IMG/VR virus record: IMGVR_UViG_3300032305_003086
Location: 32,001-96,000 of that record
Reading direction: 5' to 3' (one strand)
From: a virus
Lineage: Duplodnaviria; Caudoviricetes
Length of the DNA: 64,000 nucleotides
This document shows, piece by piece, positions 48,342 to 64,000 of the stretch. Each line of letters starts with the position of its first letter. Position 1 is the first letter of the stretch. The notes under the pieces were generated by a model that saw only the letters and a program-made list of their open reading frames with translations, was not told the origin of the DNA and made no database searches. The position numbers and the translations under genes are program-made.

Positions 48342-49324
48342 TGAAAACTTTTTATCAATTTTTAGAAAATATAAATTCTAATTTAGTTAAAATTGAATTG
48401 GAAAATTTAAAAAAATTATTAACAAAAAAACTTGAAGATTTTTTCACAGACCATGAAGACACAACAGAAGAATTGAAAAATTTCAAATTAGATTTGAACT
48501 ATGTGAAAAAAGAGCTAAAAAATTATCCTAAATTAAATGAACTTATAAATCATTTATCTATTAATAAAAATGATAATAGCTGGTACGATGGACTGCGTAT
48601 TTGGCAAAAGTCTCTACCTTCAGAAGAAGGATATAAGGTTTTCGATGTGATAAGATATCTAATGAAATATCAAGATTCACTAGAAGAAAGAAAAATTGAT
48701 AAAAATGAATATTATAAATATTTGAATGAAGTTTTAGAAAAAACCCAATCAAACATGATGGTAATTAAATCTGATATTGAAAGCTCAATTTATAAAGTGG
48801 ATTGGAATGGATCCATTGTAACAATTTTCCCATTACACCATCAAACTGATGAGGATTTCTTATCTCCTTCAATAAGTGCAGAAATTAAAGTTGGGAATAA
48901 ACAAGGAGATTTTCAATATTGGAAAGAAGGAGGAAAATTCATAATAGAAGACATTCTAGAGTCAGATGAAGAAGAATCAAAATATTTTTTCACAAACGAA
49001 CAAGAAAAACAAGATTATTTCAATCTGATTTCTCAACTTCAAAATCCAAATAAAAAAGATCAAATACTAACACTATACACAGCAAGACCAGCTAAAGATA
49101 GAGATTTTTATAGCAAAACAGATTACTTGCCAGCTAATATATTTTTATCAAATAGTTTTAGTCATGTGGATGGACTTGCTGGAGATCTACAAGGAATGGA
49201 AGAAAGAAGAGATATTTACAAAGTAAAAATAAACAGCAAATATCTAATAAAGACACTAGACGGCCCAGTCAAATATTATCAAGTAATAAAAGACTCACCA
49301 GTAGAATACATTGGATTATATTAA
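48341..49324 (+). CDS. Hypothetical protein, capsid-targeting-like N-terminus (MKTFYQFLE)
   Basis: Start set to ATG 48341 (TAATG overlap). Confidence 0.7.
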   Translation: MKTFYQFLENINSNLVKIELENLKKLLTKKLEDFFTDHEDTTEELKNFKLDLNYVKKELKNYPKLNELINHLSINKNDNSWYDGLRIWQKSLPSEEGYKVFDVIRYLMKYQDSLEERKIDKNEYYKYLNEVLEKTQSNMMVIKSDIESSIYKVDWNGSIVTIFPLHHQTDEDFLSPSISAEIKVGNKQGDFQYWKEGGKFIIEDILESDEEESKYFFTNEQEKQDYFNLISQLQNPNKKDQILTLYTARPAKDRDFYSKTDYLPANIFLSNSFSHVDGLAGDLQGMEERRDIYKVKINSKYLIKTLDGPVKYYQVIKDSPVEYIGLY

Positions 49325-50220
49325 TCTGAGATTCTCGAACTGATGTAGTCGGCTCGACACAGTATTTTTGCTTCCATAGTTTGAGGAACTACGACAGCTC
49401 CCCATTCTATTTTTTCATGATGAGATAAAATACAATGAGAAACTTTATTTATAAAGTCTTCATCTAATTTGTTTCTAATTGCCGCTTCTCTAAAAATAAA
49501 ATTAGAAATAGTAGCATGTCCAATCAAATTTTCTTTTTCTGAATTTATTTTAGGACAGTCTCCATCCATAAAATAAGTTTCTATTTTTCCTAAATCATGA
49601 AGCCATGCACTTAAATATAAAACATCGGTATTTACATTCTCAGAATAAAAATTTTTATTACAAGATGCATTTGCAATTGCAAGGCAATTACTAAAAACTT
49701 CACTAGTGTGAATAAAAAGACCACCCTTGTAATTATGATGATGAGCAATTGCTGCTGGTGCGGTGGTGAATTTATCTAGATTTGGTTTTAACAAATCAGT
49801 TAAAAACTTATGATTATTTTTATCCATCCAACAAGAAGAATCACTTAATAATTCGGCAGCAAAAGATAATTGTTTGCTTCTATCTTTGAATATTATTTTT
49901 AAAAAATCTTCGGGCACATCTTCTTGATTTATGTAAATGTGCTCACAATAAAAAGGTTTGTTTTTAGAAGTGGAGTCTAAAGACAAAGTTTTATACATAT
50001 TCAGTTCATTTTCAGCCTCCGCTAAATCTAAAACTTTTATTTTTATAAAATCTCCAGCTTTTGGAAATTCTTTTTTATTTTTTAAATTCCAGAACTTAAA
50101 AGATAATTTTCCATTTTGAGTACTTGTGTTTATTACATGCGTTATGAAAGAGCCTTTTTCTTGATCTTCAGCACTTTCTACATAAGCATATAAAAATTGG
50201 GCTAATTCTACTTTTTTCAT
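49321..50220 (-). CDS. OB-fold plus HD-domain 3'-5' exonuclease (YhaM/CBF-like)
   Basis: APAA-x-x-HHHNY-x-GGL-x-x-HT, LHDLGK, LIGH, ILSHH...EWG, ADYIS. Confidence 0.85.
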   Translation of the reverse strand: MKKVELAQFLYAYVESAEDQEKGSFITHVINTSTQNGKLSFKFWNLKNKKEFPKAGDFIKIKVLDLAEAENELNMYKTLSLDSTSKNKPFYCEHIYINQEDVPEDFLKIIFKDRSKQLSFAAELLSDSSCWMDKNNHKFLTDLLKPNLDKFTTAPAAIAHHHNYKGGLFIHTSEVFSNCLAIANASCNKNFYSENVNTDVLYLSAWLHDLGKIETYFMDGDCPKINSEKENLIGHATISNFIFREAAIRNKLDEDFINKVSHCILSHHEKIEWGAVVVPQTMEAKILCRADYISSRISD

Positions 50221-50726
50221 AATATTTGATAAATCTCTGATAAATTTCTGCCTAGACCATTATAGTCTAATCCATAACCAATTACAAATTTATTGGAAAT
50301 GTTAAACCCAACATAATCTAGTTCAATAGAATGAACATCAGGTTTCGAGAGAAGGGTAGCTATTTTTATTGATTTACATTTTATTTTTTTCAACAAATAA
50401 TTGATTGTTTTTCCTGTGTCCACAATATCCTCTACTATTATTATATTTTTTTTTCTTAGATCATCTGTGTTTATTCCGATTATATCTTTTATGCTTTTAG
50501 ATTTAGTCCCTTCATATGACTTCACCTTTATAAATGATATTTCAGATTCTAGATTTATTTTTTTATAAAGTTCAGAAGCAAACATAAAAGATCCGTCTAG
50601 AACGCACAAAAATAAGACTTTCTGATTTTTGTAGTCTTTATTTATTTTTCTTGCGATTTGGGAAATTCTTGTTTGAATTTTATTTTTAGAGATAAACTTT
50701 TTGAATTTTTTACTATTGATAATCAT
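50217..50726 (-). CDS. hpt: Hypoxanthine phosphoribosyltransferase
   Basis: VLDGSFMF, VEDIVDTGKT, FVIGYGLDY. Confidence 0.95.
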   Translation of the reverse strand: MIINSKKFKKFISKNKIQTRISQIARKINKDYKNQKVLFLCVLDGSFMFASELYKKINLESEISFIKVKSYEGTKSKSIKDIIGINTDDLRKKNIIIVEDIVDTGKTINYLLKKIKCKSIKIATLLSKPDVHSIELDYVGFNISNKFVIGYGLDYNGLGRNLSEIYQIL

Positions 50727-50773: not shown

Positions 50774-51157
50774 ATGGGCAAAACTAGTAAAGAAATATTA
50801 AATTACAGACATGAATGTGTAGATATCTATAAAATGTCCAAAGGTTGCGAAGAATGTGGATATAATACTCATCCTTACAACTTATGTTTTGACCACCTAC
50901 CCGGTGAAGAAAAGTCAGAACATGTAAAAAATGGATATTCAAAAAGATCAAGTGCAGGCGGAATGTATAGACTTTATGCAAAATCACACTCCATAGAAGA
51001 TTTAGTTGGAGAAATGAAAAAGTGTCGAGTTTTATGCAATCATTGCCATATGAAGCATACTCATGGAATCAATAATAAAAGATGCATAAATAATATTTCT
51101 AAAAAAATATCTTCTATAGAAGATTTAGAAAAAATACTTAGAGAATATGAAAATTAA
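50774..51157 (+). CDS. HNH-like Zn-finger endonuclease
   Basis: CEECG, FDH, KCRVLCNHCH. Confidence 0.75.
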   Translation: MGKTSKEILNYRHECVDIYKMSKGCEECGYNTHPYNLCFDHLPGEEKSEHVKNGYSKRSSAGGMYRLYAKSHSIEDLVGEMKKCRVLCNHCHMKHTHGINNKRCINNISKKISSIEDLEKILREYEN

Positions 51158-52329: not shown

Positions 52330-52790
52330 AATTTTGATCTCCGTTGTGTTTTCCTGCACCTTGCACGGGCTAATTTATTAGCATAAAATCTCGAAAGAGA
52401 AAAAGGAACAGGATGCGTTTGGCAAACCATAGGGTTAAAAACTCCCCTAGTGTTTCTAAGCAGTAATTAATGAAAGTTAATTACATACCTTTGACGAGGT
52501 ATATCAGGTGCTGTATTACTTTAAACCAAATGAATATTTTCCCGAAAGGGTTTTCCATGTAACCAGACAGTAGTTGATCTGTCATGGGGCGTAGGGTCAT
52601 GGTCAAAACGGAAATAACGTTGAAAAAATATTCAGTATTAAGTTAAAGTGAAGAAACTGAAAAGGTAGAAAAAGATCAAACAAATAGAATTGTCCCTAGA
52701 AGTTCTCTATAAGTGCGGTTCCAATATCTAACTTAAAAAGAATATTTCCTCAGGGATACGCCCCAAGTGCGCCAATAACGTTAATATTAA
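52330..52790 (+). ncRNA. Candidate large structured non-coding RNA, family unrecognised
   Basis: No long ORF. GAAA tetraloop hairpins at 52389-52400, 52463-52484 and 52541-52550; nested long-range helices; 9-bp pairing 52585-52593 with 52757-52765. GNRA loops and G-U pairs favour the + strand. Boundaries are approximate. Confidence 0.65.
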
Positions 52791-52796
52791 TTAATC

Positions 52797-53078
52797 ATGA
52801 AAGAACATAGAAGAAACCTAAAAAGATTAGCTAAAAGATTTTCTATTTCGATTGATGAAGCAATTCAAAAATTTTATAATACACAAACAACAAATAAAAA
52901 TATTATTTATTCTATAAAGAAAAAAAGAAATAAGGGAATTAATTCTGGTTTGGTCAAAAATAAATTAAATAAAGAAGAACTAGAAAAACTCAAAGAAAAG
53001 AAATTAAAATTTATTAGAGATTCGAAGAGAGAATCCAGATTGAAAAATATTGTAAAGCCGAAGACAAAAGTAGATTAA
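52797..53078 (+). CDS. Small Lys/Arg-rich hypothetical protein
   Basis: 93 aa, strongly basic. Confidence 0.55.
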   Translation: MKEHRRNLKRLAKRFSISIDEAIQKFYNTQTTNKNIIYSIKKKRNKGINSGLVKNKLNKEELEKLKEKKLKFIRDSKRESRLKNIVKPKTKVD

Positions 53079-53105: not shown

Positions 53106-54404
53106 ATGTCAGAAATTGCTGAAATATTAGATTCGATACAGAACTCTGACGTATTTTTTCATTTTGAATCTGATTTTGTAGATTGGACTGACGATTCTTC
53201 TGTAGATTTCGCTATTCAATCCAAAGGCCAGAAATCAATAATTTCATTATGTGAGCCAAAACATATTGAAAGTTTGGCAGCAAGTTTATATTTTTATACA
53301 AAAAATTCCAATTTGCTTACTTGGAATCTAAAAAATATCTTATCTTTTTTTAGAAAAAAATCGCAGATCAATGTAAATTTTAGCAATAAAGTTTACGACT
53401 TGAGTGTTCTTTGTTCTTACTTTTCTTTGCCCAAAAAGAAACCTACGACTTCCAAGGAAGCCTTTTTTCTTTTTAATCACATTCGTAAGACTGATAGTTG
53501 GAAGTCTTTTGAAAAGTTTTATGATAAAGTCTATTACCCACTAATATCAAATGTAATTCCTAGCATAGAAACTAATCCATTAGTTGATTTGGCCGAGAAG
53601 AAATTTGTTTATTCTTATTACGAGATTGAAGGACAATCTAATGGTAGAATGAAGAATTTAAAAGTATTAAAAGACTGTTATCTTCCTCATTCAATGGGAG
53701 AAAAGCAAAAGAATATTTTAAGACTGCCAAGTGATGATAGTGTTTTTATGTATTATGATTTCAAACACATGGAAGTTAGTGTTTTAGAATGGATAACTAA
53801 AGATGCAAATTTATCTAAAATACTTGATTCAAATGTAGATTTATATAGGTCTATCTGGCAATCACTAACAAAATCTGAGGCCACTAAAGAGCAAAGAAAA
53901 ATTTGTAAAAACATATTTTTGCCTGTTATTTTCGGTCAAGGTTCAAATTCTTTATCTAAGAGGTTGGGTATAAATGAAAAATTTGCTGAGAAACTAATAT
54001 ATAAATTAGAACAAACCTTTCCTGTTGCTTTTGATTGGGTAAAATCCCAAACAGTCGATAGCAACAATTACGCGACGGACATATTCGGTAGAAGAAGAAA
54101 ATTCCAAAAAGAAGAGTTGTATAAAATTAGAAATTTTTGTATACAATCTCCATCAAATATGATTTGTTTAAGAAAACTTGTAAAACTACATGAATCCATA
54201 AACAATAAAGCAAAAATATTTTTTCATATACACGATGGCTATGCTATTGCTTGTAAAAGAAAAGATTTAAAATTGGTATTTGAACTTGGAAAAAAAGCTT
54301 TAGAAGAAGATGACGATCTGTTTCCAAATCTTAAGCTAAAGACTTCTTGTCATTTCGGTGAACATTTGAATAATTTAAAAAATATTAAAGAGGTTATAAA
54401 ATGA
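53106..54404 (+). CDS. Minimal family A DNA polymerase-like protein
   Basis: NGR, motif A YDFKHMEV, motif B RKICKNIFLPVIFG, FGRRR, NFCIQS, motif C HIHDG; only 432 aa. Confidence 0.85.
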   Translation: MSEIAEILDSIQNSDVFFHFESDFVDWTDDSSVDFAIQSKGQKSIISLCEPKHIESLAASLYFYTKNSNLLTWNLKNILSFFRKKSQINVNFSNKVYDLSVLCSYFSLPKKKPTTSKEAFFLFNHIRKTDSWKSFEKFYDKVYYPLISNVIPSIETNPLVDLAEKKFVYSYYEIEGQSNGRMKNLKVLKDCYLPHSMGEKQKNILRLPSDDSVFMYYDFKHMEVSVLEWITKDANLSKILDSNVDLYRSIWQSLTKSEATKEQRKICKNIFLPVIFGQGSNSLSKRLGINEKFAEKLIYKLEQTFPVAFDWVKSQTVDSNNYATDIFGRRRKFQKEELYKIRNFCIQSPSNMICLRKLVKLHESINNKAKIFFHIHDGYAIACKRKDLKLVFELGKKALEEDDDLFPNLKLKTSCHFGEHLNNLKNIKEVIK

Positions 54405-54967: not shown

Positions 54968-55128
54968 AAATAGATCAAAATTGCTACTTGATTGCTTATG
55001 AAAAAGACAATGATCTTACAATAGGTTCTGCCTACATTGGAGAAACAATAGTTTCTTTAGAGCTTTGTTATAATCAAAATGAAAAATATATAAAAATTAC
55101 AACACATCCAATTGATTATGATATTTAA
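54964..55128 (+). CDS. Small hypothetical protein (54 aa)
   Basis: Not in the track. ATGA overlap with the sigma gene; MKIDQNCYLIAYEKDND...PIDYDI; fills the intergenic gap. Confidence 0.5.
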   Translation: MKIDQNCYLIAYEKDNDLTIGSAYIGETIVSLELCYNQNEKYIKITTHPIDYDI

Positions 55129-55403
55129 TCCCAAAATTCATTTCCTGTTTCATCAAAATAATGAAGAACCCATCCTTTGGTAGATGGATATTTTCTGTCA
55201 ATTTTAATTTTTCCATCATGTATTTTTCTATGGCAACAAGAACAACATGTCACTGTATTGCTAGAGGTGTATTCTCCTCCTTCGCAACCTGGAATTATTC
55301 TATGTACGTCTAACGTACAATATTCTTTATTATCACAAAAGAAACATTTTTTGTCTGTTTTTTTCTTATGGACTTTATTGATTAATTTCTTTTTTCTTCC
55401 CAT
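55125..55403 (-). CDS. HNH endonuclease
   Basis: CFFC...LDVHRI-x-PG-x-EGG-x-Y-x-x-x-N-x-VTCC-x-x-CH. Confidence 0.8.
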   Translation of the reverse strand: MGRKKKLINKVHKKKTDKKCFFCDNKEYCTLDVHRIIPGCEGGEYTSSNTVTCCSCCHRKIHDGKIKIDRKYPSTKGWVLHYFDETGNEFWD

Positions 55404-55476: not shown

Positions 55477-56514
55477 ATGAGAATAGAAAACGAAATCAAG
55501 CTAGACTTTTCAGATGTTTTAATTCGTCCGAAAAGATCAGAATCTCCTAGCCGTAAAAATGTTGATTTGAATAGAAAATTTAAATTTTTAAATTCTAAAG
55601 CAACTTGGGAGGGAGTTCCTATATTTGCTGCAAACATGAGCACTACTGGCACATTTGCGATGTTCAATGCTTTTGCAAAGCACAGCATGAACGTTTGCTT
55701 GCATAAATATTACACAGTAAATCAATTGGTTGATTTCTTTAGAAGTAATCAAGCTTTCTATACTCTAGGAATTAAAGAAGAAGAATTTGAAAAATTAAAT
55801 AGTTTTGTGAAAGCTTTTGGTTCTGCTCCAAAATATATTTGTCTCGATGTTGCGAATGGTTATACTAAATTTTTTGAAGAAAAATGTAAAATAATAAGAG
55901 AAAAATTTAAAGATTCCGTTTTAATGGCTGGTAATATTTGCACTCCTGAAATGGTTCAAGAATTATTATTAAATGGTGGAGTTGATATAGTCAAAGTTGG
56001 GATCGGAGGAGGCAGTGCATGTACAACCAGAATTGTAACTGGAGTTGGGTATCCTCAACTAAGTTGCATCGCAGAGTGTGCGGATGCGGCTCACGGCTTG
56101 CGTGGTCACATAGTTGCTGATGGAGGATGCACATCTTCTGGAGACATAGCCAAAGCATTTGGTGCTGGGGCTGATTTTGTCATGCTTGGTGGCCTCCTAA
56201 GCGGCCATGACGAATGCGAGGGTGATTGGCATTATGACGACGATGGCAACAAGCAATATTTGAATTTTTATGGAATGAGTAGCAAAGAGGCCATGGATAA
56301 ATTTAATGGCGGACAATGCAACTATAGAGCCTCAGAGGGCAGATCCGTAAAGGTGCCTTATAAAGGCAAGGTTGATGATACTATTATAGAAATACTAGGG
56401 GGAATTCGAAGTGCTTGCACATATGTTGGCACTGAGATGTTGAAAGATTTTAGCAAATGTTGTACATTTGTAAGAGTAAACAACACGCACAACAGAATTT
56501 TTGAGAAAAATTAA
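55477..56514 (+). CDS. guaC: GMP reductase
   Basis: LDFSDVLIRPKRS, DVANGY, KVGIGGGSACTTR, ECADAAHG, FYGMSS, YRASEG. Confidence 0.95.
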   Translation: MRIENEIKLDFSDVLIRPKRSESPSRKNVDLNRKFKFLNSKATWEGVPIFAANMSTTGTFAMFNAFAKHSMNVCLHKYYTVNQLVDFFRSNQAFYTLGIKEEEFEKLNSFVKAFGSAPKYICLDVANGYTKFFEEKCKIIREKFKDSVLMAGNICTPEMVQELLLNGGVDIVKVGIGGGSACTTRIVTGVGYPQLSCIAECADAAHGLRGHIVADGGCTSSGDIAKAFGAGADFVMLGGLLSGHDECEGDWHYDDDGNKQYLNFYGMSSKEAMDKFNGGQCNYRASEGRSVKVPYKGKVDDTIIEILGGIRSACTYVGTEMLKDFSKCCTFVRVNNTHNRIFEKN

Positions 56515-58185
56515 ATGCCAGATCAAGATTTTGATTTTGATGACGGAGAATTGACCGAAGAAGAAACATTTAAATTAAGTAGAAATACAAATCCTGACGA
56601 TGATCAAACCATAAAATATAATTGGACAGAAGAATTTCAAAGAAATATAATAGCTTTATTACTTAATGATCGTTGGTTCACTGTTCAGTGTAGAGATTTG
56701 ATAAATCCTAATTATTTTGTAGAGGAAGTTCATCAGCTACTCTGTAGAAATTTATTTTCCCATCTTGATAAGTGGAATATTTTACCACAGAAGTCTTTTG
56801 TTATAGAAGAAGTTCAGAGTTCAGTCGGCAACAAAGATGTAGAAATTAAGCAAAGATATATTTCTGAAACTGAAGCTCTTTACGCAAAATACGTTCCTAA
56901 TTTAGAGTCTAGGGAATATCTTTTAGAGAAAATTCTTAATTTTGCTAAATTGATGAGTTTGAAAAATGCGTTTGATACCTCTCTTCAATTGATGAAAAAA
57001 GACCCGGAAGAAGAATCCACTTGGGTCAAAATTCAGTCAGCTTTAAAAGAAGCTTTGCTTGTTGATAGAAATTTCAACGAAGGATTGAACTATTTTGAAA
57101 CATTTGAAGAGAGATTTCAAAGAATTACTAAAGATGAAGAGGCTCAAGAAAGATTCACAAGTGGATTTAAGAGTATTGATGACGCTTTATTGGGCGGCGG
57201 TCCTCATAGAGGTGAGATTTATTCTTGGATTGGTTTGAGTGGAACCGGAAAAAGCTTGGCTCTGGTTAGCGCTTCACTAAGAAATGTTCAACTGGGCAAA
57301 AAAGTTCTATATGTTTCTCTTGAAATGGACGAAGACAAAATTGCAGAACGATTTGACGCTCAAATAGCAAATATAAATATAAATGAAATTAAAGATAAGT
57401 CTGACGTGGTTATGAACGCTTTGTCTGAAAAAGTTCAAGATAAAGAAGATAAAAGACTTTTGGTCATTAAGCAGTTCCCGGCGGGCAGTATGACGGTCAA
57501 TACTTTGCGAGCATACATGCAGCAACTCTATATGATAGGGTTCACGCCAGATTTAGTAATTATTGATTACATCGGAGAAATGAAAGATTTTCCTGGGATG
57601 CCAACTTGGGAATCTAGATATAGAATTGTTAGAGATTTAAGAGGTTTGGCAACAGAAGAAGATATTTGCATATTTACGGCCATGCAGCCTAATAAAAGTG
57701 CAAGAGATGCCCAGAATAAAGAAGGCCTAGGACCCGGTGTTATTGACGACACCAATTTGGCAGATAGTTATGGTCAAATTAGACCTTTGGATGGTTGCTG
57801 GTCAATTAATCAAATGCATCAAGAAAAAGAAGCCGGAGTAGCCAGAATATTTGTAATTAAGCACAGGCATGGTAAAAGTAGGTTTACTTTTCATGTTGAA
57901 TATGATGCTAAACTTAATGATAAAGATGATAAGCACGTAGGCACTTTGGCTATGAATGAAATCTCTGCCGCTGAATACGACAGGATTTGGAAGATACACC
58001 AGATGAATACTGTGACCAAAGTTTCTGACGAAAATAGCCAAGAGAAAAAAGTTTGGAATAAAATGAAGGGCAAGGACAAGAATAAGAATAAGTTTTCAAA
58101 CGATGCTGGTTATAATAATCAAGACTTAGATGAATCAGATAACTTAGATCAACCTGACAATTTACAAGGAGAAAATCATGAGTGA
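56515..58185 (+). CDS. Replicative DnaB-like helicase (T4 gp41-like)
   Basis: GLSGTGKS, YVSLEM, IIDY, TAMQ, LADS, K-x-RHG. Confidence 0.92.
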   Translation: MPDQDFDFDDGELTEEETFKLSRNTNPDDDQTIKYNWTEEFQRNIIALLLNDRWFTVQCRDLINPNYFVEEVHQLLCRNLFSHLDKWNILPQKSFVIEEVQSSVGNKDVEIKQRYISETEALYAKYVPNLESREYLLEKILNFAKLMSLKNAFDTSLQLMKKDPEEESTWVKIQSALKEALLVDRNFNEGLNYFETFEERFQRITKDEEAQERFTSGFKSIDDALLGGGPHRGEIYSWIGLSGTGKSLALVSASLRNVQLGKKVLYVSLEMDEDKIAERFDAQIANININEIKDKSDVVMNALSEKVQDKEDKRLLVIKQFPAGSMTVNTLRAYMQQLYMIGFTPDLVIIDYIGEMKDFPGMPTWESRYRIVRDLRGLATEEDICIFTAMQPNKSARDAQNKEGLGPGVIDDTNLADSYGQIRPLDGCWSINQMHQEKEAGVARIFVIKHRHGKSRFTFHVEYDAKLNDKDDKHVGTLAMNEISAAEYDRIWKIHQMNTVTKVSDENSQEKKVWNKMKGKDKNKNKFSNDAGYNNQDLDESDNLDQPDNLQGENHE

Positions 58186-62164: not shown

Positions 62165-63160
62165 ATGGGATTAAATATCAATGCTTTAAGTAGCGAATAT
62201 AAAGACATAAAATCTAATGAAAACTCTGCATCTGTCGGATCATTCTTAGAAAATTTTGTAAGAATGCCGGATGGGAAAGGCAGCGTTGTTCTTAGAATTC
62301 TTCCCCCCGCCCACGATGGAATGTTTGGTAGAGATGACAATCCATTTTTTCAGACAACAAGAATTCACAAGGTGAATGGAAAAAGTCTTCATGATCCTCG
62401 TGAAAAAGTAAATGGCAAATGGGTTGGAGAAAATCCGATAGGTGACTATTTGAGATGGCTCTGGAAAGAGTCGGAACAATCCTCTCCCGACGAGCGTGAC
62501 AGAATGCAGGCTCTATATAGAGAGCTAAAGCCAATTGATAGATATTATTATAATGTTATTGTCAGAGCCGAGACAGATGAAAATGGCAACGTAAAGAAAG
62601 ATGTTGGCCCTAAGATTTTGTCTGTTGGAAAAACTGTTCACGAGGCCATCCTCAGAGGAATCCTTGGCGATAAAGAAATGAATCAGCCAAAGCTTGGAGA
62701 TGTTACAGACTTCAAGACTGGTCGAGATTTCAAGTTAGTGAAAACTATTCGTAAGTCTGGAGAAAATACCTATCCAAATTATGAAAGTTCTCATTTCTTG
62801 GACGAATCTCCAGCTGGAGATCCTGAACAGTGCAAGCAATGGATGGAAAATTTACACGATCTAAAGTCTTTAAGAGTTCTAAAGCCTGCGGAAGAATTAG
62901 AGAATGAATTGATGGTCCATCTTGGATTGAAACAGGAAACAAGCTCTAGTTTTGATCCGTCCAAGTATCAGTCTAAGTCTTCTGTCGCTTCTTCTCCTGC
63001 CCCTGCCCCCAAAGTAAAGCAGGTTGTAGAAGATGATGGAGTTGAAGTCGCCTCAGTTGCCGCAACTGTTTCCAAAAAAGCAGTGAAAGAAGAATCGGAT
63101 GATGCCGATGACGAAGTGGCAGATAAAGATTTTCTAGAAGAGTTAAGAAAATTAACTTGA
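62165..63160 (+). CDS. Single-stranded DNA-binding protein (T4 gp32-like)
   Basis: LRILPP, RYYYNV, D-x-x-TGRDF, YPNYESS and an acidic C-terminal tail; GGAG SD. Confidence 0.85.
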   Translation: MGLNINALSSEYKDIKSNENSASVGSFLENFVRMPDGKGSVVLRILPPAHDGMFGRDDNPFFQTTRIHKVNGKSLHDPREKVNGKWVGENPIGDYLRWLWKESEQSSPDERDRMQALYRELKPIDRYYYNVIVRAETDENGNVKKDVGPKILSVGKTVHEAILRGILGDKEMNQPKLGDVTDFKTGRDFKLVKTIRKSGENTYPNYESSHFLDESPAGDPEQCKQWMENLHDLKSLRVLKPAEELENELMVHLGLKQETSSSFDPSKYQSKSSVASSPAPAPKVKQVVEDDGVEVASVAATVSKKAVKEESDDADDEVADKDFLEELRKLT

Positions 63161-63228: not shown

Positions 63229-63251
63229 ACAAAATACAGGAGTTAATTAAA

Positions 63252-64000
63252 TGGCTAAATCTAAAAAAAATAATGATGCAGAAATTCTTGCTGGTATATT
63301 AAATGAAACTGGCGGCGAAACTTTACGTGATGCCGGTCAAGTTCCTTACTATGTTGATACTGGCAATTTAGCTGTAAATTATGCATGTAGCGGCAAGTTT
63401 ATAAATGGAGGTTTTCCGGGTGGTAGAATTATCGAGGCTTTCGGCCCTGAAGCCTCTGGAAAATCTTTTTTGGGTTACTGCTTTATGCATTCTGTTCAAA
63501 AAATGAATGGGATTGCAATTTTATTGGATTGTGAGAGATCCAGCGGAGCCGAATTCGCAGAAAGATGTGGTCACGTCGATCCGGATTCGTTAGTTGTGTA
63601 TGATCCTGTTTCTCTTGAACAAGTTGAAAGAAAAATAACAACCGTTGTCAATAAAATAAGGGCAGCTTTCCCAGACAAGCCTATAGGAATTGTTTGGGAT
63701 TCAATAGGCGTTAATCCGACTGATAGAGAGTGGGGTTCCATAGACCTTCCAGAAAATCCAACGCAGCAACAAATTTCTGCCGCTGGCGGAAATGAGCGAC
63801 CCGGCGAACGTGCCAAAGCTGCAAATAAAGTTTTGAGAAGTTTGAATCCATTCCTAAATAATAATAACGCTACTCTTTATGTGATTAATCAAGTTAGGAA
63901 AAAAATTGGAGTTATTTATGGAAATGACGAAACAACTTCTGGTGGTGGCGAGGCTCTGAAATTTTATGCCTCTTTAAGACTTCGCTGTGGTGCTCCAAAG
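63252..64000 (+). CDS. uvsX: RecA/UvsX recombinase, 3'-truncated by the window edge
   Basis: Not in the track. MAKSKK...DTG...GGFPGGRIIEAFGPEASGKS...DCE...VWDS...INQVR...TSGGG-x-ALKFYASLR; AGGAG SD. Confidence 0.93.

Follow-up and report, generated by a model that had tools for sequence, protein, structure and literature searches.

The divPolA1 polymerases of phages with genomes of 155-190 kilobases (kb) have a truncated thumb and a dead exonuclease, and head a replication module in phages that also encode a regular polymerase (PMC11348598). In divPolA2 of barbaviruses, described in the same study, neither a thumb nor exonuclease activity is recognisable; this phage PolA stands beside a regular polymerase, its N-terminal globular domain is novel, its gene neighbourhood varies and its structural matches are RNA-polymerase-like (PMC11348598). 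Staphylococcal SCC elements encode CCPol-MP-Cch2, in which a shortened family A polymerase acts together with a small partner protein and lies next to a helicase gene (PMC10201439). What CCPol lacks is the greater part of the exonuclease domain rather than the thumb; the partner, MP, has a beta-barrel fold and binds to the exonuclease remnant, the helicase is not of the DnaB type, and priming has been demonstrated for CCPol. The 2023 reclassification of PolA contains 19 clusters plus CCPol, none of them without a thumb (PMC10201439), and our literature searches for a thumbless PolA found only the report of Yutin et al. 2024 (PMC11348598). Here we describe a family A DNA polymerase of 432 amino acids (aa), from which the whole thumb of about 100 residues is cleanly excised, with a linker of five residues in its place. 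The gene lies in a stretch of 64,000 nucleotides of viral DNA (the window), which comprises bases 32001-96000 of the 126.6-kb IMG/VR virus record IMGVR_UViG_3300032305_003086.

Both divPolA1 and the window polymerase are family A enzymes of about 440 aa whose genes open a replication module with a single-strand DNA-binding protein (SSB), RecA and DnaB. The following differences were found: (i) the thumb of divPolA1 is truncated, whereas that of the window family is fully excised; (ii) the divPolA1 member used for comparison, gene 1 of Flavobacterium phage vB_FspM_immuto (441 aa), has no steric-gate Glu in motif A, has Phe/Tyr at positions 762/766 and reads YDA in motif C; (iii) the phages of the window family reach 595 kb, well above the range of the divPolA1 phages; (iv) the sigma-like protein p188 encoded downstream of the window polymerase has no detectable counterpart in the immuto module. 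In contrast to divPolA2, the window polymerase resembles Pol I over its whole length and has retained the Glu of the steric gate. Unlike CCPol, in which the exonuclease domain is largely deleted and a small protein is in place of it, the window polymerase retains the exonuclease-like fold in full.

A Pol I-type polymerase with the thumb excised

The polymerase is a Pol I-type family A enzyme reduced to a vestigial exonuclease-like domain, the palm and the fingers. Pfam DNA_pol_A (PF00476) matches it with 91.4 bits against a cut-off of 34.3 (E 7e-26), and residues 193-420 correspond to profile positions 133-378 of 381; positions 1-132 of the profile, the thumb part, have no counterpart in the protein. 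An AlphaFold2 (AF2) model, built with an alignment of 73 relatives that are 28-81% identical to the polymerase, reached a predicted local distance difference test score (pLDDT) of 95.0 and a predicted template modelling score (pTM) of 0.93. Foldseek aligned this model globally to Pol I large fragments, and VIA-align superposed its residues 3-426 on KlenTaq residues 295-832 (Z 32.0, root-mean-square deviation 2.9 A). Because 394 residues of the 538-residue KlenTaq chain were aligned, about 144 of its residues have no partner in the model. The same superposition identifies aa 1-128 as a vestigial exonuclease-like domain and shows that the palm and the fingers are complete.

The site of the excision can be located precisely. 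The pre-thumb strand IPSIETNPLVD (aa 151-161), a segment with IET that was pointed out in an initial annotation of the window made from the sequence alone, is joined by the linker LAEKK to the post-thumb hairpin FVYSYYEIEGQSNGR (aa 167-181), which ends in G180-R181, a TGR-type motif. The spacing between E155 and R181 is 25 residues in 72 of the 73 aligned relatives, compared to 126 residues between the equivalent E541 and R668 of E. coli Pol I. Thus, the thumb subdomain (helices H-I, from the N-terminal palm to the TGR motif) is absent from the polymerase, and no relative retains it. The thumb deletion proposed in the initial annotation is therefore confirmed, and the structure prediction and superposition that it had suggested as a check gave a model without an intact thumb. 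A split gene with the thumb encoded elsewhere was considered and rejected, given the single PF00476 match per large record and the tight five-residue linker in a confident model. As an experimental precedent, Minnick et al. are reported to have shown in 1996 that Klenow with an engineered deletion of 24 residues at the thumb tip retains polymerase activity, whereas its affinity for DNA, its processivity and its frameshift fidelity are reduced; compared to that mutant, the whole subdomain is absent here, in a natural and conserved family.

KlenTaq and the Pol I large fragment are the best structural and sequence match of the polymerase, with the same exonuclease-like domain, palm, fingers and catalytic motifs. 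In a comparison with hhalign, the polymerase family was aligned to Klenow with a probability of 98.7% (E 2e-16), and this alignment, together with the motif positions, provides the E. coli numbering used here. The closest solved relatives by profile are bacterial Pol I (Taq, E 4e-28; Bst, E 3e-27), Pol nu and Pol theta. Compared to Pol I, the window polymerase has neither the thumb nor the 5'-3' nuclease domain (PF02739 has no match in the genome), and it has Leu for Phe 762 and HDG for HDE. The NCBIfam model of the Pol I equivalog, TIGR00593, scored 60.6 bits, far below its cut-off of 600 bits, and over aa 208-420 only.

The exonuclease-like domain has kept its fold and lost its catalytic carboxylates; the part of KlenTaq matched by the model N-terminus, from residue 295, is itself a vestigial exonuclease domain. 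WNLKNI (aa 73-78) aligns with N420-L-K422-Y-D424 of E. coli, and its Asn and Lys are retained, K76 being invariant. Position 78, the equivalent of D424, is I, L or F across the family and never Asp, and family column counts gave no conserved DxE in the Exo I region. No conserved carboxylates were found at the places that define a proofreading site, namely the Exo I DxE, the Exo II Asp and the Exo III YxxxD; the invariant D98 is part of a structural FDTML-type motif, not of Exo III.

By contrast with these losses in the exonuclease-like domain, the residues that define family A polymerases are in place, i.e., the Asp and Glu of motif A, the Arg and Lys of motif B and the Asp of motif C. Nine residues, R181, D218, E223, R264, K268, L272, G277, Q347 and D377, are invariant in all 73 sequences, down to 28% identity. 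At position 276, the equivalent of Y766, 46 of the 73 have F and 27 have Y; the second carboxylate of motif C is missing, with Gly at this position in 69 of the 73. Leu at position 762 is a known and common variant in several PolA subfamilies (PMC10201439). From these motif counts and the alignment it follows that all sequence details of the initial annotation were correct: the WNLKNI stretch without its Asp, the retained Asp and Glu of motif A and Asp of motif C, and Leu, Phe and HDG as the departures from F762, Y766 and HDE.

The polymerase family and its gene neighbourhood

The polymerase family has many members of uniform length and evolves under purifying selection. When 1.84 billion representatives were searched with a profile, 262 clusters (at 50% identity) were obtained with E<=1e-30; among the 150 of them that were listed, nearly all are 400-460 aa long and match end to end. 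A search for relatives longer than 756 aa or fused found none, which is weak evidence. In IMG/VR, there are 169 loci with the family, the largest contigs being 572 kb, whereas among GenBank phage records the polymerase was found in LR756511.1 only, a 595-kb uncultured phage. Five related records of large size (436-595 kb), of which three are 91-100% complete, each have a single PF00476 match, namely the thumbless polymerase. For pairs of polymerases with unsaturated synonymous divergence (dS 0.09-0.85), the Nei-Gojobori ratio of nonsynonymous to synonymous substitution rates (dN/dS) is 0.06-0.22, and the catalytic Asps show no decay, which bears on the pseudo-enzyme alternative named in the initial annotation. 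A pseudo-enzyme is rejected, given the invariant catalytic residues and the low dN/dS. In huge aquatic phages, the polymerase belongs to the conserved replication genes. CheckV estimates the source record, in which the window has a G+C content of about 30%, to be 25% complete, and this points to a full phage genome of about half a megabase.

The polymerase heads a replisome gene module, the features of which are listed in Table 1. The gene order is strongly conserved: the polymerase, p188, DnaB, the unannotated p168, p204, p247 and p159, the gp32-like SSB and the RecA-like recombinase. Pfam, PHROGs and NCBIfam gave no match for p168, p204, p247, p159, p216, p266 or p93.

Table 1. Coordinates of the polymerase, its motifs and the accompanying features in the window
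Feature	Position	Strand	Basis
Conserved non-coding stretch ahead of p93	52330..52790	+	nhmmer, 10 related loci, E down to 6e-46
p93, basic protein of 93 aa (32% K+R), 27 nucleotides upstream of the polymerase	52797..53078	+	jackhmmer, fusions
Thumbless family A DNA polymerase gene, 432 aa	53106..54404	+	Open reading frame (ORF), Pfam PF00476, AF2, KlenTaq superposition
Vestigial 3'-5' exonuclease-like domain, aa 1-128; remnant motifs WN.K (aa 73-76) and YDL..SY (aa 97-105)	53106..53489	+	KlenTaq alignment from residue 295; column counts
Thumb excision scar: pre-thumb strand aa 151-161, 5-residue linker, post-thumb hairpin to R181	53556..53648	+	Coordinates, spacing 25 vs 126
Motif A: D218 metal ligand, E223 steric gate	53751..53786	+	Invariant in 73; aligned to D705/E710
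Motif B / O-helix: R264, K268, L272, F276, G277	53892..53942	+	Aligned to R754/K758/F762/Y766/G767
Motif 6: N343, Q347	54126..54155	+	N 72/73, Q 73/73
Motif C: H376, D377, G378 = H881/D882/E883; HDG, not HDE	54219..54248	+	H 71/73, D 73/73, G 69/73
p188, downstream partner gene, 188 aa	54401..54967	+	Start overlaps polymerase stop (ATGA)
DnaB-like replicative helicase	56515..58185	+	Pfam DnaB_C, PHROG 19; in 73/80 loci
gp32-like single-strand DNA-binding protein	62165..63160	+	Pfam gp32, PHROG 1192
RecA/UvsX-like recombinase	63251..64000, continuing to 64438 beyond the window	+	Pfam RecA E 2e-34

The most constant companion of the polymerase is p188. With a hidden Markov model, p188 was recognised behind the polymerase in 80 of 81 related loci, and the one exception is cut at the polymerase end; in most loci p188 follows the polymerase directly. 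With 50-88% identity, p188 is conserved more strongly than the polymerase. The AF2 model of p188 is all-helical (pLDDT 87); sigma region 2 domains account for about 20 of its 50 best VIA-wide matches, with Z of only 5.7-7.4, Pfam Sigma70_r2 has sub-threshold matches in 6 of 40 members, and an Atlas lead points the same way. Foldseek and a profile search of the PDB found nothing. By eye, F-x-T-Y ... W-x-x-Q resembles region 2.3, and D-I-x-Q-D...L-L-R-A resembles regions 2.1-2.2, so that p188 looks like a factor consisting of sigma-70 region 2 only, in the style of T4 gp55, with an insertion of about 75 residues. Based on its VIA-wide, Pfam and Atlas likeness to sigma-70 region 2, we take p188 to be a probable gp55-like sigma factor rather than a polymerase subunit. 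The idea that p188 is a thumb acting in trans, or another subunit of the polymerase, was accordingly set aside as less probable, given that the PDB profile and Foldseek searches were empty and VIA-wide led to sigma region 2.

Upstream of the polymerase, jackhmmer detected p93 homologs directly adjacent to it in 12 loci, in the subclade with polymerase identity of at least 42%. In two relatives, a p93-like sequence forms the N-terminus of the polymerase ORF itself (P0066, 37% identity over 76 aa, E 8e-11; P0027, 70% identity over 44 aa), and fusion in two lineages argues that p93 and the polymerase act together. The non-coding stretch ahead of p93 occupies the same position in 10 loci of the p93-bearing subclade; thus, the order of non-coding stretch, p93 and polymerase is conserved in the subclade that holds the window. 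Some other relatives (P0243, P0245, P0262, P0304; locus L025) carry a different N-terminal extension of 85-110 aa, with the pattern LPRYK...W.GK.K, which is unrelated to p93 and is possibly a small beta-barrel, given a weak Atlas match to signal-peptidase-like barrels (TM 0.53-0.59).

The related genomes encode other replication enzymes as well. In the genome of the window, the N-terminal part of a DnaE-type Pol III alpha subunit lies near the contig end (G000:C1:124503-125633, outside the window). Of 15 large related records, 11 encode DnaE, among them most of the records that are at least half complete, and the DnaE gene lies tens of kilobases from the polymerase. It is usually split at one conserved point (around position 98/100 of Pfam PF07733) into two genes 4.5-21 kb apart; the split form occurs in records G000, G001, G003-G009 and G012, and DnaE is unsplit in LR756511.1 and one IMG/VR record. 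No PolB was found. A Toprim primase is encoded in four of the five large related genomes and a Prim-Pol in one. RNase H is present in two of the eight records checked.

Several further genes were noted in passing. Purine-salvage or pool-shaping genes flank the polymerase (49321-50726, 55477-56514), namely an HD phosphohydrolase, a GMP reductase and, named by eye, a hypoxanthine phosphoribosyltransferase-like ORF; they fit a genome of 30% G+C. Two small ORFs with Cys/His motifs, at 55125-55403 (-) and 50774-51157 (+), are HNH endonuclease-like by eye; the former lies between p188 and the GMP reductase, and has homologs in the same place in 13 related loci. Outside the window (G000:C1:111167-116088), there are genes for a PrkA AAA serine kinase and a SpoVR-like protein, with an unannotated 395-aa ORF between them.

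Function of the thumbless polymerase

Judging from its conserved residues, the enzyme looks catalytically competent. The best explanation of its function, which we hold tentatively, is that it serves as a distributive, proofreading-free, template-directed polymerase at the replication fork, beside a processive replicase. Three lines of reasoning lead to this explanation: (i) an active, template-directed DNA polymerase that uses deoxynucleoside triphosphates (dNTPs) is suggested by the active site, by E223 as the steric gate and by the residues that read the minor groove; (ii) the missing thumb and the missing proofreading site argue for distributive, unedited synthesis; (iii) the place at the head of the module and the second polymerase in most genomes suggest extension of 3' ends in short patches, followed by a hand-off. 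Yutin et al. 2024 give divPolA1 an analogous replication role on similar context grounds (PMC11348598).

Under this explanation, D218 and D377 would perform two-metal nucleotidyl transfer, the E223 steric gate together with R264 and K268 of the O-helix would select dNTPs, and the primer-template would be read via R181, N343, Q347 and H376. Having neither a thumb nor a proofreading site, the enzyme would hold the upstream duplex loosely and incorporate only a few nucleotides each time it binds. Its substrates would be 3' ends in need of short extension, i.e., those of RNA primers, recombination intermediates and short gaps, whereas bulk synthesis would be left to a processive replicase, which would be the phage DnaE in most genomes, or that of the host. 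In the subclade of the window, p93 probably supplies extra nucleic-acid binding, a role suggested by its fusion to the polymerase in two lineages. An RNA polymerase was considered as well, and rejected because the steric-gate Glu is invariant.

It should be noted that several observations weigh against a distributive enzyme assisting a processive replicase. The HDG in motif C, i.e., the loss of the carboxylate equivalent to E883, may slow catalysis. That processivity is low is deduced from the missing thumb only, and the function is predicted here from genes and models. One apparently complete genome (record L061, 532,729 bases, CheckV 100%) carries the thumbless PolA, a Toprim primase and a Prim-Pol, and in it we found neither DnaE markers (PF07733, PF17657, PHP) nor a PolB; hence, the polymerase is not always accompanied by another polymerase. 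Neither a flap endonuclease (FEN)-type 5'-3' exonuclease nor a beta-clamp was found by Pfam, so that a complete phage-encoded machinery for Okazaki-fragment maturation and hand-off is not demonstrable in genomes where many module genes cannot be annotated. A role in Okazaki-fragment maturation, which the enzyme may have, was considered and not upheld, given no FEN domain and RNase H in two of eight records.

The same observations bear on a second explanation, which we regard as rather unlikely, that the thumbless enzyme is the main replicative polymerase and receives its processivity and fidelity from partners in the module (p168, p204, p247, p159, DnaB or p93). It heads a conserved replisome operon and is the sole PF00476 match in all five large records, DnaE being distant, split in most genomes and undetectable in the complete 533-kb genome; moreover, Yutin et al. 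mention such a role as possible for divPolA1 (PMC11348598). However, a polymerase with no proofreading site and no thumb would then have to copy genomes of about 500 kb, most of the records (11/15) encode DnaE, and neither a clamp nor a separate proofreading subunit was identified.

The conserved arrangement upstream of the polymerase allows another, improbable explanation, in which the polymerase, with p93, binds a putative RNA from the upstream non-coding stretch and either elongates an RNA primer at an origin, in the manner of Pol I at ColE1, or uses RNA as its template. The order of non-coding stretch, p93 and polymerase in the subclade and the two p93 fusions are consistent with this possibility, but both the stretch and p93 were detected by sequence search only where polymerase identity is at least 42% (10 and 12 loci, respectively), whereas the polymerase-p188 pair occurs throughout. 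In addition, the active site has no feature that points to RNA templates, and the upstream RNA may be a mere operon leader or regulator. More specifically, and with a still smaller probability, the polymerase could be the catalytic subunit of a ribonucleoprotein in which p93 tethers the putative upstream RNA as a primer or origin element, as a scaffold replacing the thumb or as a template. If true, this would be a mode of RNA-dependent DNA synthesis not known for family A polymerases.

We consider it quite improbable, too, that the polymerase is merely a divergent member of the published divPolA1 family. The design of divPolA1 is recognisable, with a similar size (441 vs 432 aa), a reduced thumb, an inactivated exonuclease and the catalytic residues of the palm, and so is the context, at the head of a replication array in large phages that carry another, regular polymerase (here DnaE, in the window's genome and in 11/15 records). 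Specific sequence homology, conversely, was absent in the comparison that we made, which covered one branch, the immuto protein and its family (the published representatives CAB4155247 and QDP51333, and the records LR796625, MK892584 and MK892766 with other divPolA1 members, lie outside this comparison). BLASTP against the immuto protein found no similarity; the profile-profile comparison gave a probability of 44% (E 2e-4), and Klenow was the better match for both the window family (98.7%, E 2e-16) and the immuto family (80%, E 1e-5). The excision boundaries differ as well, with 25 residues here and about 40 in the immuto consensus, and of the two modules only DnaB and SSB are detectably homologous. 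From these sequence comparisons, we conclude that the window polymerase represents a distinct, much larger and fully thumbless family with the same design logic as divPolA1. Taken together with the reports of divPolA1 and divPolA2 (PMC11348598), this family suggests that loss of the thumb in phage PolAs probably happened more than once.

The weakest candidate, a primase or template-independent nucleotidyltransferase freed by thumb loss from the need for a pre-formed primer (cf. PrimPol, CCPol-MP and the Abi reverse transcriptases), recalls the priming cited for CCPol-MP (PMC10201439), the thumb-lacking Abi reverse transcriptases (PMC11077055) and the small partner genes beside a helicase gene, but is very unlikely in view of the separate Toprim primase (4/5 related genomes) and Prim-Pol (one), the invariant or nearly invariant minor-groove and primer-terminus contacts R181, Q347 and H376, and an exonuclease-like domain that is intact, unlike that of CCPol. 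The initial annotation had proposed a competent but non-processive nucleotidyltransferase engaged in primer synthesis, gap filling or template-independent activity; it had overlooked the conserved replisome setting, DnaE as a second polymerase and the comparable design of divPolA1 reported in 2024 (PMC11348598). Catalytic competence is upheld by the conserved residues and the low dN/dS, and gap filling or short-patch synthesis is plausible; primer synthesis and template-independent activity are unsupported, given the Toprim primase, the retained readers of the primer-template duplex and the invariant E223.

The thumb counts as a constitutive element of the polymerase right hand, and this family shows that it is dispensable for some replication task. 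At about 430 aa, the thumbless enzyme is a natural minimal scaffold for enzymology and engineering. Its occurrence also raises the question of how labour is divided in huge phages between a thumbless PolA and a DnaE that is usually split.

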